Positions 50,562-56,067 of a stretch of 64,000 bases of DNA are shown piece by piece (the stretch's first letter is position 1; each line of letters starts with the position of its first letter). Both the position numbers and the translations under genes were made by a program. Location: the NCBI GenBank assembly GCA_031359975.1, contig JANMAS010000499.1:3149-67148 (forward strand), in the 5' to 3' direction. Source of the DNA: Burkholderiales bacterium (GTDB lineage Bacteria; Pseudomonadota; Gammaproteobacteria; Burkholderiales; Burkholderiaceae_C). The notes below the pieces were generated by a model, which saw only the letters and a program-made list of their open reading frames with translations, was not told the DNA's origin and did not search any database.

Positions 50562-52214
50562 ATGCAACTCACTCTCTGGACCTACGAAGGCCCCACGCAT
50601 GTGGGAGCGATGCGCGTCGCCACCGCGATGGAAGGCGTGCACTACGTTTTGCATGCGCCTCAGGGCGACACCTACGCCGACCTGCTGTTCACGATGATCG
50701 AGCGGCTGCCCCGCCGTCCGCCGGTCACCTACACCACCTTCCAGGCGCGTGATCTGGGCGGCGATACCGCCCAGCTGTTCAAGACCGCCGCGCTCGAAGC
50801 CTACGAGCGCTTCAAGCCGCAGGCCATGATGGTGGGCTCCTCGTGCACCGGCGAGTTGATCCAGGATGACCCGGGTGGCCTGGCGCGTGCGCTCAACCTG
50901 CCGATCCCGGTGGTGCCGCTCGAGCTGCCTTCCTATCAGCGCAAGGAAAACTGGGGCGCTGCGGAAACCTTCTATCAGATGGTGCGCACGCTGGCCGGCC
51001 CCGCCGCCCTGGAACGCGCCGCTGCCCGTCAGGCCGATTCGGCACCCGCCGCCGCGCGCCCCGCCGGCCAGCGCCCGCGCTGCAACCTGCTCGGCCCCAC
51101 CGCGCTGGGCTTTCGCCATCGCGACGATGTGCGCGAGATCACCCGGCTGCTCGGCGACATCGGTGTCGATGTGAGCGTGGTCGCGCCGCTCGGTGCGTCG
51201 CCGGCCGATCTGGCGCGTCTGGGCGACGCCGATTTCAACGTCATCCTGTACCCCGAAACAGCCTCGATCGCGGCGCAGTGGCTCAAGCGCCAGTTCGGCC
51301 AGCCGAGCACGAAAACCATCCCCATCGGCGCGGGCGCCACGCGCGATTTCGTCAAGGAAGTGGCCGAGCTGGCCGGGCTCGATCCGTCGGCCGCGCTGGC
51401 CAACACCGAAGCCCGCTCGACTTGGTATGCCCGTTCGGTGGACAGCACCTACCTCACCGGCAAGCGCGTCTTCATCTTCGGCGATGCCACCCACGCCATC
51501 GCCGCCGCGCGCATCGCCCACAGCGAACTCGGTTTCACCGTCGTCGGCCTGGGCACCTACAGCCGCGAATTCGCCAAGGATGTGCGCGAAGCCGCCAAGC
51601 TGTACGGCATCGAAGCCCTCATCACCGACGACTACCTCGACGTTGAAACCCAGGTGGCCGAGCTGCAGCCTGAGCTGGTTCTGGGCACGCAAATGGAGCG
51701 CCACATCGCCAAGCGCCTGGGCGTGCCCTGCGCAGTGATTTCGGCGCCGGTGCATGTGCAGGATTTCCCCGCGCGCTACTCACCGCAGATGGGTTTCGAA
51801 GGCGCGAACGTGCTGTTCGACACCTGGGTGCATCCCCTGATGATGGGCCTCGAAGAGCACCTGATCGGCATGTTCAAGGGCGACGCCGAATTCCACGAAG
51901 ACGCCGCCCCGTCGCACCTCGGTGCGGGCCATGCCGCCGTGGCGGCCCCTGCCGCGCCGGTTGTGACAGCCGCCGCGCCCGTCGCGCCGATCGCGCAAGC
52001 CGCACAAACCGCTCAAACGGCACCGGCTTCACCGCCGATCGTCGTGCCGGCCTCGCTGGCCTGGGCGCCGGAGGCCGCGAAGGAACTGAACAAGATCCCG
52101 TTTTTCGTGCGCGGCAAGGCCAAGCGCAATACCGAACGCTACGCCCAGGACCAGGGCGTCGCCACCATCACTGTCGAGACACTCTACGATGCAAAAGCGC
52201 ATTTCTCCCGCTAG
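50562..52214 (+). CDS. bchB: Light-independent protochlorophyllide reductase subunit B
   Basis: The ATG at 50562 gives [38 protein letters not shown]. The upstream part of track ORF 49608.. is bchN read in another frame. Confidence 0.95.
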
Positions 52215-55200
52215 GTCGTCCTCGTTCGTTGCCGCCGGTGGCGGTGGCACGGCGATCACTCCCCCAGCGCGCGGCACGCCGATGCGCGTGGTGCTGGTGA
52301 CGATGGACTCCCACCTCGCCGGCGCCGCGGAGCGTGCCAGCCGGCGACTCGCGATCAGCCTGCCCGGCGTGGTGTTCACCTCGCACGCGGCTGCCGAGTG
52401 GTGCGACGATGAGCAAAAGCTCGCCCGCTGTATCGCCGACATCGCCTCGGCCGACATCGTCATCGCCACGATGCTGTTCATGGAGGATCATTTCCTGCCG
52501 GTGCTGCCGGCGCTGAAGGCTCGGCGCGACGCCTGCGACGCCATGGTGTGTGCGATGAGCGCCGGCGAAGTGATGCGTCTCACCCGCATGGGCAAGTTCC
52601 GCATGGATGGCCAAGCGAGCGGTCTGGTGGGGCTGCTCAAGCGGCTGCGCGGCAGCAAGCCCACGGCGCCGGGAGACAAATCCGGGGAAGCCGGTGTCAA
52701 GGCCAGTTCCGGCGCCCAGCAGATGAAGATGCTGCGCCGTCTGCCGAAGATCCTGCGTTTCATCCCCGGCACCGCGCAGGATGTGCGTGCCTATTTCCTC
52801 ACACTGCAGTATTGGCTCGCCGGTTCCGAGGACAACGTCGCCAACCTGGTGCACGCGCTCGTCGATCGTTACGCGGACGGTCCGCGCAAGGCCCTGCGCG
52901 GCGTGGCAAAGGTGCATGAGCCGGTGGAGTATCCGGAGGTGGGCGTGTATCACCCGCGCGCCACGCCGCGCCTGAGCGATGACGTCCGCATTCTTCCTCC
53001 CGTGGCGAAAAATGGGCAGCGCGGCACCGTCGGTGTGCTGCTGATGCGCTCTTACCTGCTGGCCGGCAACACCGGTCACTACGACGGCGTGATCACCGCG
53101 CTCGAGGCGCGCGGCCTGCGTGTGCTGCCGGTGTTCGCCACCGGGCTCGATTCACGCCCGGCCATCGAACAGTTCTTCTTCGCGGGCGGCCGCCCGGTGA
53201 TCGATGCAGTGGTCTCGTTGACCGGCTTCTCGCTCGTCGGTGGCCCGGCGTACAACGACGCCAAGGCGGCTGAAGACATCCTCGCCCGACTCGATGTGCC
53301 GTACCTGGCTGTCTCGCCGGTGGAATTCCAGACGCTGGATCAGTGGGGCGGCTCGGAGCGCGGATTCCTGCCGGTCGAAGCGACGATGATGGTCGCCATC
53401 CCCGAACTCGACGGCGCCACCGGTCCGATGGTCTTCGGCGGACGCGGCAATGCCAGCCATGTCGCCTGCACCGGATGCGCCAGGGGTTGCACCTTCCCGC
53501 AGAGCAAGGATTCGAACGACATGCAGCCCTGCAGCGAGCGCGCCGAAGCGCTGGCGGCCCGCGTGGGCAAGCTGGTGGACCTGCGCCGCTCCGAACGCGC
53601 CGAACGCAAGATCGCGGCCGTGATCTTCAATTTCCCGCCGAATGCCGGCAACACCGGCACGGCGGCGTTCCTGTCGGTCTTCGAGTCGCTGTTCAACACG
53701 CTCGTGGCGATGAAGCGCGAAGGCTACACGGTCGACCTGCCCGCCAGCGTCGAAGACCTGCGCGAGCGGGTGATCACCGGCAACGCGGCACGCCATGGCG
53801 CGATGGCCAATGTGCACGCGCGCATCCTCACCGACGATCACGTGCGCCGCGAGTCGCACCTGAAGGAGATCGAAGCCCAGTGGGGCCCGGCACCCGGCCG
53901 CCAGCAAAGCGATGGATCCAGCCTGTTCGTGCTCGGCGAGCGCTTCGGCAACGTCTTCGTCGGCATCCAGCCGGCGTTTGGCTACGAAGGTGATCCGATG
54001 CGCCTGCTGTTCGAAAAGGGCTTTGCGCCCACGCATGCGTTCTCGGCCTTCTATCGCTGGCTGCGGGAAGATTTCGCCGCCCATGCGGTGCTGCACTTCG
54101 GCACCCACGGCGCACTCGAATTCATGCCCGGCAAACAAAGCGGCATGTCGGCCGACTGCTGGCCCGATCGCCTCATCCGCGACCTGCCCAACATCTACCT
54201 CTACGCCTCCAACAACCCCTCTGAAGGCATGATCGCCAAGCGCCGCGCGGCGGCCACGCTGATCAGCTACCTCACGCCCCCTGTGGCGCAGGCCGGCCTG
54301 TACAAGGGCCTGGCGGATTTGAAGGCGCTGATGGAGCGCTTCCGCGGGCTGCAGCCGAACGAGACCGCGGAAGCGAGTGAACTGGCCTCGATGATCCAGA
54401 TCCAGGCCGCCGCACTCGATCTCGTGCCCGCCGCTCCGGTGTGGGGCTCATCGGCCGCCGATCAGGTGGCTCGCCTCACCGAATCGGTGCTCGAATACGA
54501 GTACACGCTGATTCCCTGCGGCTTGCATGTGGTGGGCCAGGCGCCCTCCGAAGCCGAGCGGGTGGATTTGCTGCTCTCGCTGTGCGAGGCTTCTCACGGC
54601 ATGCGTCCTGAACGGGCGGTGATCGAAGCCCTGGTGCAAGGCCAGTCGCCCGAAGCGGCGCTCGCCAAGGCCGCCGTGCCAGCGTCGCCCGAGCTCGTCG
54701 CCCAACTCGCCGAGCTGGCCTCCTGCGACCGCCTGATGGCCGAAGACCACGAGATCGACGGCCTGATGCGCGCCCTCGATGGCCGTTACATTCGCCCCGC
54801 ACCCGGTGGCGACCTGCTGCACACGCCGGCGATCCTGCCCACAGGTCGCAACCTGCACGGCTTCGATCCGTTTCGCCTGCCCAGCGCCTACGCGGTGAAG
54901 GATGGCGCGCGCCAGGCCGATCGCCTGCTGCAGCGCTACATGGACGACGGCCACGCGTTGCCCGAGTCGATCGCCATCGTGCTCTGGGGCACCGACAACA
55001 TGAAGACCTAGGGCGCGCCCATAGCGCAAGCCCTGGCCTTGATGGGCGCCCGTCCGCGCTTCGACAGCTACGGCCGCCTGGCCGGTGCCGAGCTGATCCC
55101 GCTGGCCGACCTGGGCCGCCCGCGCATCGACGTCGTCGTCACCCTCTCCGGCATCTTCCGCGATCTGCTGCCGCTGCAGATCAAGCTACTCGCCGAAGCC

Positions 55201-56067
55201 GCGTTTCTCGCCTCCACGGCCGACGAGGCATGCGAGCAGAACTTCATCCGCGCGCATTCGCTGGCCTACATGAAAGAGCACGGCGTCGACATCGAAACCG
55301 CCGCGCTGCGGGTGTACGGCAACGCCGAAGGCACCTACGGCAGCAACATCAACAGCCTGATCGACAACAGCGCCTGGGAAGAGGGCGACGAACTCGCCGA
55401 AACCTACAGCCGCCGCAAAGGCTTTGCCTACGGCCGCGCAGGGCGGCCGACGCAGCAGCCCAAGCTGCTGCAAAGCGTGCTGGCCAACGTGCAGCTCTCC
55501 TACCAGAACCTGGATTCGGTGGAGCTGGGCGTGACCACCATCGACACCTACTTCGACACGCTGGGCGGCATCAGACGTGCGATCGAGAGCTCCAAGACGG
55601 TGAAGCAGGGATCGACGGCCGACGTGGCCCCGGTGTACATCGGCGACCAGACCGCCGATGCCAACGGCGGCGGCACGGTTCGCACCTTGTCGGAACAGGT
55701 GGCGCTCGAAACACGCACCCGCATGCTCAACCCGAAGTGGTACGAGGGCATGCTCAAGCACGGCTACGAAGGCGTGCGCCAGATCGAGGTGCATGTCACC
55801 AATACCATGGGCTGGTCGGCCACCACGGGCCAGGTGCAGCCCTGGGTCTACCGGCAGATGACCGAAGTGTTCATGCTCGATCCGGAAATGCGCGATCGCC
55901 TGGCACAACTCAATCCCACGGCCTCCGCCAAGGTGGCCAATCGTCTTCTCGAAGCCTCGCGGCGCAATTACTGGACGCCCGACCCCGAGATGCTCGCGGC
56001 ACTCCAGCGTGCCGGCGAAGAACTGGAAGACCGTCTCGAAGGTGTTTTTGAAGGAGCTCATGCATGA
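52189..56067 (+). pseudogene. bchH: Magnesium chelatase subunit H, interrupted by one in-frame TAG at 55009-55011
   Basis: ORFs 52189..55011 and 55039..56067 are in the same frame. The junction reads ...VLWGTDNMKT*GAPIAQALALMGARPRFDSYGRL across a conserved BchH block. The stop sits where, from memory of BchH sequences, I expect Glu (GAG). The downstream 340 codons remain open. Confidence 0.9.

Follow-up and report, generated by a model that had tools for sequence, protein, structure and literature searches.

A stretch of 64,000 nucleotides of DNA from a Burkholderiales bacterium (assembly GCA_031359975.1, contig JANMAS010000499.1), referred to here as the window, carries part of a photosynthesis gene cluster in which bchH, the gene for subunit H of magnesium chelatase (52189-56067, forward strand), is broken at codon 941 by an in-frame TAG at 55009-55011. 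All positions are given in the numbering of the window, on its forward strand. The TAG is really present in the sequence of the window. At about even probability, the explanation favoured here is a nonsense mutation that is genuine and, in evolutionary terms, recent, one that would lie in the DNA of the organism and not just in the assembly. Most likely the break is an ordinary recent nonsense lesion or a consensus error, and not a new biological mechanism: this copy of bchH behaves as a nonsense pseudogene at its earliest stage, or as an error of the consensus.

The interrupted bchH frame

A direct reading of positions 54997-55029 gives AAC ATG AAG ACC TAG GGC GCG CCC ATA GCG CAA, and translation of 52189-56067 yields one frame of 1,292 sense codons with a single internal stop (codon 941) and a terminal TGA. 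The first-pass annotation of the window had described two open reading frames (ORFs) that share this frame and are parted only by the TAG, and both the translation and the ORF list confirm it: the pair is 52189..55011 (940 residues) and 55039..56067 (342 residues, with a TTG start). Accordingly, two fragments of the gene can be defined on the forward strand, an upstream one of 940 codons (52189-55008), which is the expected truncated product, and a downstream one of 351 sense codons (55012-56064), in which there is no stop, no frameshift and no ribosome-binding site of its own.

The assignment to bchH comes from the translation and from the NCBIfam and Pfam families. The profile NF009942 of NCBIfam, 'magnesium chelatase subunit H' (1245 positions), matches the upstream fragment over positions 7-905 and the downstream fragment over positions 907-1241, and exactly one profile position (906) is lost between the two. 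The upstream fragment alone scores 1500.5 bits against this profile (cut-off 1166) and 1036 bits against TIGR02025 (cut-off 829), and the TIGR02025 match is carried on by the downstream fragment at positions 935-1271. The gene has the two domains DUF3479 and CobN-Mg_chel of Pfam, and the break falls at about 767-779 of the 1090 positions of the latter, that is, within the domain and not at its boundary. The 120 closest BchH proteins in the database (75-80% identical, mostly from Burkholderiales) are all 1,244-1,315 residues long; the one uninterrupted frame of approximately 1,250-1,300 codons that defines an intact bchH is lacking here, since the TAG cuts it at codon 941.

The sequence beyond the stop retains the properties of a coding frame. 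The G+C content of third codon positions (GC3) hardly changes across the stop, from 0.84 to 0.83, and 351 codons are open after the TAG, against an expectation of about 16 codons between stops in random sequence, so that this intact frame is not the product of chance. None of the usual signs of long-standing decay (more stops, frameshifts, a lost codon bias) is seen, and the profile match runs on continuously across the open codons. The absence of a second stop or frameshift in those 351 codons, together with the unchanged GC3, argues for a recent origin of the stop.

TAG is a working terminator in this genome, given that it ends bchB, 2.8 kb upstream of codon 941, and most of the 11 CTAG sites of the window coincide with ends of listed ORFs. 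For this reason ribosomes should stop at codon 941, which would produce a 940-residue protein deprived of the last 27% of the CobN/Mg-chelatase domain. The region around the stop aligns to the Synechocystis ChlH chain 4zhj_A (E=7e-51), and the truncated product breaks off, by our own count, where index 1013 of that chain aligns. Lys1018 of ChlH has been assigned to domain V (PMC4951491). From this alignment, the break probably lies in or near domain V of ChlH, with most of domain V and everything beyond it lost.

It is well known that the porphyrin is bound by the H subunit of Mg-chelatase, which also contains the active site. The truncation is accordingly expected to block the first committed step of bacteriochlorophyll synthesis, as does the loss of BchH; bchH mutants of Rhodobacter accumulate protoporphyrin IX. 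The truncated BchH would be expected to be inactive for the insertion of Mg into protoporphyrin IX, this copy of bchH would be a newly made pseudogene, and a cell without a further copy would make hardly any bacteriochlorophyll, if any at all. The case resembles the spontaneous pigment-less bch mutants and nonsense pseudogenes of purple bacteria, in which one base change stops a biosynthetic gene in an otherwise intact operon; it differs from them in that the lesion belongs to a cluster of three substitutions and is known here from sequence. In the same way, the gene is a member of the BchH/ChlH/CobN large chelatase subunits (Synechocystis ChlH 4ZHJ and 6YSG) by its DUF3479 and CobN-Mg_chel domains and by its NF009942 and TIGR02025 matches, whereas its frame, unlike theirs, is interrupted at 4zhj_A index 1013. 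A literature search for stop codons or pseudogenes in bchH brought up no paper that appeared relevant, as judged by titles and abstracts.

The replaced residue and the substitutions around it

The residue expected at codon 941 was read from 280 relatives, which comprise the 120 best database proteins and 160 related genomic or metagenomic loci. Glutamate occupies the column in 279 of them and aspartate in one, and a stop in none. All 120 of the closest proteins have Glu, as do 159 of the 160 loci (the remaining one has Asp), with codons GAA in 92, GAG in 67 and GAC in one. Evidently, the TAG stands in place of a conserved Glu codon (GAG/GAA). Two loci (L009 and L014) that share the flanking codons of the window read AAG ACC GAG GGC GCG CCC (with ATC as the next codon in L009), and a third (L019) has GAA instead; since relatives with the same flanks read GAG, the TAG is most simply derived by a G->T change at 55009. 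Both the Glu that the first-pass annotation had expected at this column and the single transversion, GAG to TAG, that it had proposed are thus borne out.

The locus has no close relative among the sequences searched: the best identity is 84% in genomes and 76% in metagenomes, and a degenerate pattern of the exact site found no match in metagenomes. The nearest relatives are 72% identical in PanE and 80-84% identical in BchH. The sequence probably stems from a draft or metagenome contig, and from a Burkholderiales lineage of which no close relative has been sequenced.

The stop is accompanied by two further changes, which make three G:C->T:A transversions within 24 nt (C->A at 55000, G->T at 55009 and C->A at 55023). 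The first turns the CTG or CTC codon of the relatives into ATG (55000-55002) and replaces Leu938 by Met; residue 938 is Leu in 120 of the 120 proteins and in 159 of the 160 loci (the exception being a Met), that is, in 279 of 280 overall. The third concerns Ile945, whose codon at 55021-55023 is ATA and, judging from codon counts, derives most likely from ATC by the change at 55023. Among the Ile codons of 17 genes of the cluster (about 6,760 codons in total), ATC is used 249 times, ATT 17 times and ATA once, at Ile945 alone, while the loci of the relatives have at this codon ATC in 116 cases, ATT in 33 and ATA in four.

By our own arithmetic, the sole ATA would lie four codons or fewer from the stop with a probability of about 0.001, and at least one of some 20 violated near-invariant columns would lie at most three codons from it with a probability of about 0.1; the joint chance of finding both Leu938Met and the ATA near the stop is about 1e-4. 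It is therefore very unlikely that the three changes are independent, and the figures point to one local event as their shared origin, be it mutational or artefactual. The lesion had previously been described as single, which holds inasmuch as the TAG is the sole in-frame stop; it is not an isolated change, however, but the middle one of three. If the favoured explanation is correct, the G->T transversion that turned the GAG of the conserved Glu941 into TAG would have arisen together with Leu938Met and the ATC->ATA change of Ile945 in one mutational episode, at or beside a GC-rich palindrome.

This small GC-rich quasi-palindrome was read directly at 55008-55024; its arms are CTAGGGCG and CGCCC(A)TAG, and within it 55009 is the partner of 55023. 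The arms of the ancestral type, CGAGGGCG and CGCCC(A)TCG (as in L009), pair too, and the changes at 55009 and 55023 are complementary (G.C -> T.A). Predicted folding energies do not differ among the four allele combinations (-10.4 to -10.7 kcal/mol), and the minimum free energy (MFE) structure does without the 55009-55023 pair. Given a local cluster, the probability that two of its members are partners by coincidence is estimated by us at about 0.06. Template switching between the arms of the inverted repeat consequently finds weak support as the cause of the cluster, because the stem is short, the pair is absent from the predicted fold, the energies are equal and the coincidence is of that size.

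Quasi-palindrome mutagenesis by template switching has been studied in E. coli and yeast (for example PMC7202029, PMC8794818). The bchH site is like that process in that two of its three changes are complementary substitutions at paired positions of a short inverted repeat, a trace of the type left when one arm is copied from the other. It is unlike it in several respects: the stem has only about 6-8 bp with a bulge, the changes bring no gain in energy, at least two steps would be needed because the arms of the ancestral type were paired at this position already, and Leu938Met lies outside the repeat.

Three other ideas about the site were considered and set aside. Selection for a hairpin, or its stabilisation by the paired changes, was rejected on the grounds that the four allele combinations show no difference in energy and the MFE structure ignores the pair. 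An engineered lesion, as the succession of an AvrII site (CCTAGG) and an AscI site (GGCGCGCC) at the stop might suggest, was also rejected: GGCGCGCC occurs 20 times in the window, the GGC GCG CC codons that make up the AscI site at the stop are already found in L009, L014 and L019, and CCTAGG occurs at three further sites of the window, each at or beside the end of a listed ORF. Finally, the impression of four unusual residues in succession (NMKT*GA compared with NLKSEGG) mostly dissolved, as LKTEGAPI is a common natural variant; once it is allowed for, the unusual coding changes are Leu938Met and the stop alone.

Two features of the local sequence are recorded separately. A perfect 8-nt inverted repeat, GCGCCCAT and ATGGGCGC, lies at 55015-55022 and 55042-55049 with 19 nt between its arms; it would reach 9 nt if the ancestral-type ATC were present, the C->A change at 55023 having shortened it. 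The tetranucleotide CTAG is extremely scarce: the 64 kb contain 11 sites, where base composition predicts 199 and a Markov estimate 41. Most of them fall where listed ORFs end (such as 9173, 21389, 32579, 33466 and 52211), and one is at the bchH stop (55008).

Divergence rates and the rival explanations

The rate at which the gene has changed was compared with that of its neighbours in nine gene segments from 42 related loci, with distances fitted to one neighbour-joining topology and seven genes as reference. On the terminal branch of the window, BchN, BchB, BchM, LhaA, PuhA and AcsF show 0.85-1.12x the expected divergence, BchL, which is strongly constrained, 0.53x, and the 908 BchH codons before the stop 1.03x (confidence interval (CI) by column bootstrap 0.93-1.13); the relative rates of the seven neighbouring genes tested and of the part before the stop are normal (absolute z at most 1.2). 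The 351 codons after the stop stand at 1.60x (CI 1.24-1.94; z=2.8, rank 1 of 43), and all three bins into which they were divided exceed 1.25x. In a set of 188 BchH sequences the after/before ratio of the window is 1.54 (rank 4 of 121) and its absolute excess ranks 2 of 188. Private substitutions are somewhat enriched in both parts: before the stop there are 18 where 10.5 would be expected, and after it 6 where 2.2 would be. A count of near-invariant columns (21 against 1.9, leave-one-out) was set aside as biased, since the window is an outgroup to the 120 matches, and was replaced by the tree-based relative-rate tests.

The excess after the stop is suggestive, at about p = 0.01-0.03, which places the window in the top 1-3% of BchH sequences. 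The earlier statement that the 3' third of bchH shows no further decay is correct as to stops and frameshifts, there being none; in amino-acid change the segment has this modest excess on the lineage's own branch. The excess does not look like the neutral decay of a dead gene, in which the part before the stop would be expected to share it and BchL would not be so constrained. Two readings of it remain: in one, it is lineage-specific change that has nothing to do with the stop, and the stop is very recent or not real; in the other, the stop is older and somehow tolerated.

In favour of a real and recent mutation it can be said that the window is otherwise clean, that a disrupted bchH is not rare (about 3% of the 160 related loci) and that guanines are changed on both strands, unlike what one damaged template would give. 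The divergence after the stop was also counted on this side, as it would be expected only if the stop has lasted for some evolutionary time, and is suggestive in this respect. Several findings weigh against such a mutation. The base at issue comes from one sequence, whose best relatives are those already mentioned (84% in genomes, 76% in metagenomes), and a tight cluster of substitutions beside a GC-rich palindrome is also typical of a local consensus artefact. Three intact genes among 120 equal the after/before ratio of the window, so that the excess may have nothing to do with the stop. A long-dead bchH would predict about 1.34x before the stop too, where 1.03x (0.93-1.13) is observed, and BchL at 0.53x does not fit a long-dead bchH either. 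The loss of function, the sequencing or assembly error and the read-through that the first-pass annotation had listed as possibilities were not separated by sequence alone; the evidence has merely shifted the weight given to each.

The disruptions found elsewhere consist of four frameshifted loci and one partial locus with a different in-frame stop. The frameshifts are those of the metagenome-assembled genome (MAG) loci L019, L031, L044 and L071, three of which bear 'MFD' sample codes; the other stop, in the metagenome contig L106 (at about nt 1383), aligns to residue 1120 (Thr) of the window.

The most probable of the rivals, though clearly less so than the favoured explanation, is a sequencing or assembly artefact. 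On this view the true sequence of the organism is GAG (with CTG and ATC, probably, at the two companion codons) and the consensus is wrong at a poorly covered, hairpin-prone, GC-rich palindrome. The apparent origin of the sequence from a draft or metagenome-derived contig speaks for it, as do the concentration of three unusual changes in 24 nt around GGGCGCGCCC and the fully functional appearance of the rest of bchH and its neighbours; the complementary partner changes could come from a strand-specific miscall on both strands or from template switching in vitro. Against it, substitution errors that survive into a consensus are rarer than real nonsense pseudogenes, and no other gene of the 64 kb shows damage. 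The changes C->A, G->T and C->A on the forward strand involve guanines of both strands, a pattern at odds with oxidation of a single template strand, and when bchH is broken in error-prone assemblies it is mostly frameshifted (four frameshifts against one in-frame stop in the 160 loci). An artefact also leaves the excess divergence after the stop unexplained.

It is unlikely, by our estimate, that the stop is real and tolerated, through near-cognate read-through of UAG or through a two-piece BchH made by re-initiation at Met952. The photosynthesis genes would then stay under selection, while the segment after the stop, being rarely translated, would be under weaker constraint. Such a history predicts the observed rates (1.03x before the stop, 1.60x after it, normal neighbours and BchL at 0.53x), which simple gene death does not, and it agrees with the 351 codons that have stayed free of frameshifts and second stops despite their excess of amino-acid changes. 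Tyrosine, a common product of near-cognate read-through of UAG, is moreover the native residue of cyanobacterial ChlH at the position aligned to codon 941, and bchL has a strong Shine-Dalgarno (SD) sequence of its own, GAAGGAG, and its start need not depend on coupling to bchH. On the other hand, none of the 280 relatives has a stop at codon 941, the window contains no suppressor tRNA (its only tRNA is a tRNA-Asn), and sequences of the ancestral type fold locally at least as well. Re-initiation would lack an SD, as no match to one precedes the TTG at 55039 or the ATG at 55042, where the predicted duplexes have a dG of -0.9 and -1.5 kcal/mol, compared with -8.0 kcal/mol for the SD of bchL. The rate signal, for its part, reaches merely the top 1-3% and is equalled by intact genes, and a read-through of about 1% would yield little pigment, BchH being needed in near-stoichiometric amounts.

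Compared with programmed or leaky read-through in known systems, bchH shares the in-frame UAG followed by a long, intact and codon-biased frame, and differs in the absence of the stop from every relative and in the fact that neither a stimulatory element nor a suppressor tRNA was found in the window. That the TAG is both real and old, with the 351 codons behind it drifting about 60% faster while purifying selection still acts in full on the rest of the cluster and on the 908 codons upstream of the stop, is regarded as improbable, slightly more so than toleration in general.

On a par with that improbable case is a redundant copy, that is, a second intact bchH elsewhere in the genome that supplies the enzyme while this copy decays and the cluster stays selected. 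Neighbours that are normal or strongly constrained, next to a bchH with a stop and an excess of private substitutions on both sides of it (18 against 10.5 and 6 against 2.2), would agree with it. The 908 codons before the stop, however, evolve at a normal tree-based rate, and redundancy should relax the whole length of the gene; furthermore, to our knowledge, purple Proteobacteria normally carry one bchH, in the order bchFNBHLM.

The gene is not naturally split, nor is the TAG a conserved recoding site (by pyrrolysine-type decoding, for example) that would make the locus normal for its lineage, a proposal that is effectively refuted: its sole support is that both halves of bchH are intact and in frame, whereas no bchH is split or stopped at codon 941 in 120 proteins or in the 135 loci with a near-complete bchH (the four frameshifts and the other stop lie elsewhere), the downstream fragment has neither a ribosome-binding site nor a spacer, bchB is terminated by TAG, the break falls inside the CobN/Mg-chelatase domain, and tRNA and Rfam scans of the window found no suppressor tRNA, recoding machinery or RNA element for recoding, their only hits being tRNA-Asn(GTT) and a thiamine pyrophosphate (TPP) riboswitch. 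The first-pass annotation had allowed that orthologues might end at this point and encode the C-terminal part as a second gene with its own start and ribosome-binding site; no such split was found among them, and no SD is present.

The photosynthesis cluster and the meaning of the stop

The part of the photosynthesis cluster contained in the window spans 42486-63192 on both strands, with a full-length family match for each gene. On the minus strand are bchP, a pucC-like gene, bchG, ppsR and a regulator of the PpaA/AerR type with a B12-binding domain; on the plus strand are bchF, bchN, bchB, bchH, bchL, bchM, lhaA, puhA, puhB, puhC, acsF and puhE, followed by a DUF427 gene. All 16 photosynthesis genes that neighbour bchH have essentially full-length profile matches. 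The order bchF-N-B-H-L-M is conserved, with bchF, bchN and bchB upstream of bchH, and bchL, bchM and lhaA (of the PucC family) downstream. The intact bchB (50562-52214, forward; TIGR01278 positions 1-512 of 512) ends in TAG and overlaps the start of bchH, and the equally intact bchL (56064-56975, forward; TIGR01281 positions 2-265 of 268) follows with its own SD. The description of the neighbouring bch and puh genes as intact and coupled by overlaps is upheld by these matches and by the start/stop overlaps of bchH and bchL (56064-56067, ATGA) and of puhA and puhB (59977-59980).

BchL is 97% identical to its counterpart in the Comamonadaceae MAG locus L059, and BchN, BchB and BchH are 65-81% identical to those of the same locus; this likeness reflects either the extreme conservation of BchL or local recombination. 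The DUF427 (NTP_transf_9) gene lies at 63193-63738 on the forward strand, directly after puhE, at the end of the puh-acsF operon.

The remaining 42 kb of the window hold ordinary chromosomal genes. About 45 other ORFs of the window were checked: most have full-length family matches, a few have no family and none bears a sign of disruption. The TPP riboswitch (4768-4872, forward; at the Rfam gathering score) stands directly upstream of a TonB-dependent receptor (4885-7128, with Plug and beta-barrel domains), an arrangement that suggests thiamine-regulated uptake across the outer membrane. An ORF for a kinase with a HipA-like C-terminal domain (a toxin; 29190-30449, forward) lies in a stretch of slightly lower GC (0.636) and adjoins a regulator of the Rrf2 family (30461-30994, reverse) and an NnrS gene (31046-32323). 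In a protein of 808 residues (24543-26969, reverse), the region of the MauG/MbnH-like di-haem peroxidases is confined to the C-terminal half, and the N-terminal 380 residues have no match. The segment 33466-36300 has the highest GC of the window (0.72 at 34-36 kb), with long ORFs that overlap on both strands and a weak lipase-like match.

The meaning of the stop depends on which explanation is correct. If it is an artefact, the value of the observation is one of curation, and bchH should be annotated as intact once the consensus has been corrected. The cluster of three substitutions at a GC-rich palindrome is a small and concrete case for the study of clustered or templated mutation as opposed to consensus artefacts. 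Wider interest is limited to the low-probability reading in which the stop has long been tolerated: if that were true, a working H subunit of Mg-chelatase would still be made, by leaky decoding of UAG (with Tyr as a plausible residue) or as a two-piece enzyme, and the stop would act as a built-in throttle on bacteriochlorophyll synthesis. If, as favoured here, the mutation is genuine, it would show a lineage of Burkholderiales phototrophs caught at the first step of losing bacteriochlorophyll synthesis; it would offer a dated example of how photosynthesis gene clusters start to decay, and it would caution against reading phototrophy from the presence of a cluster alone.

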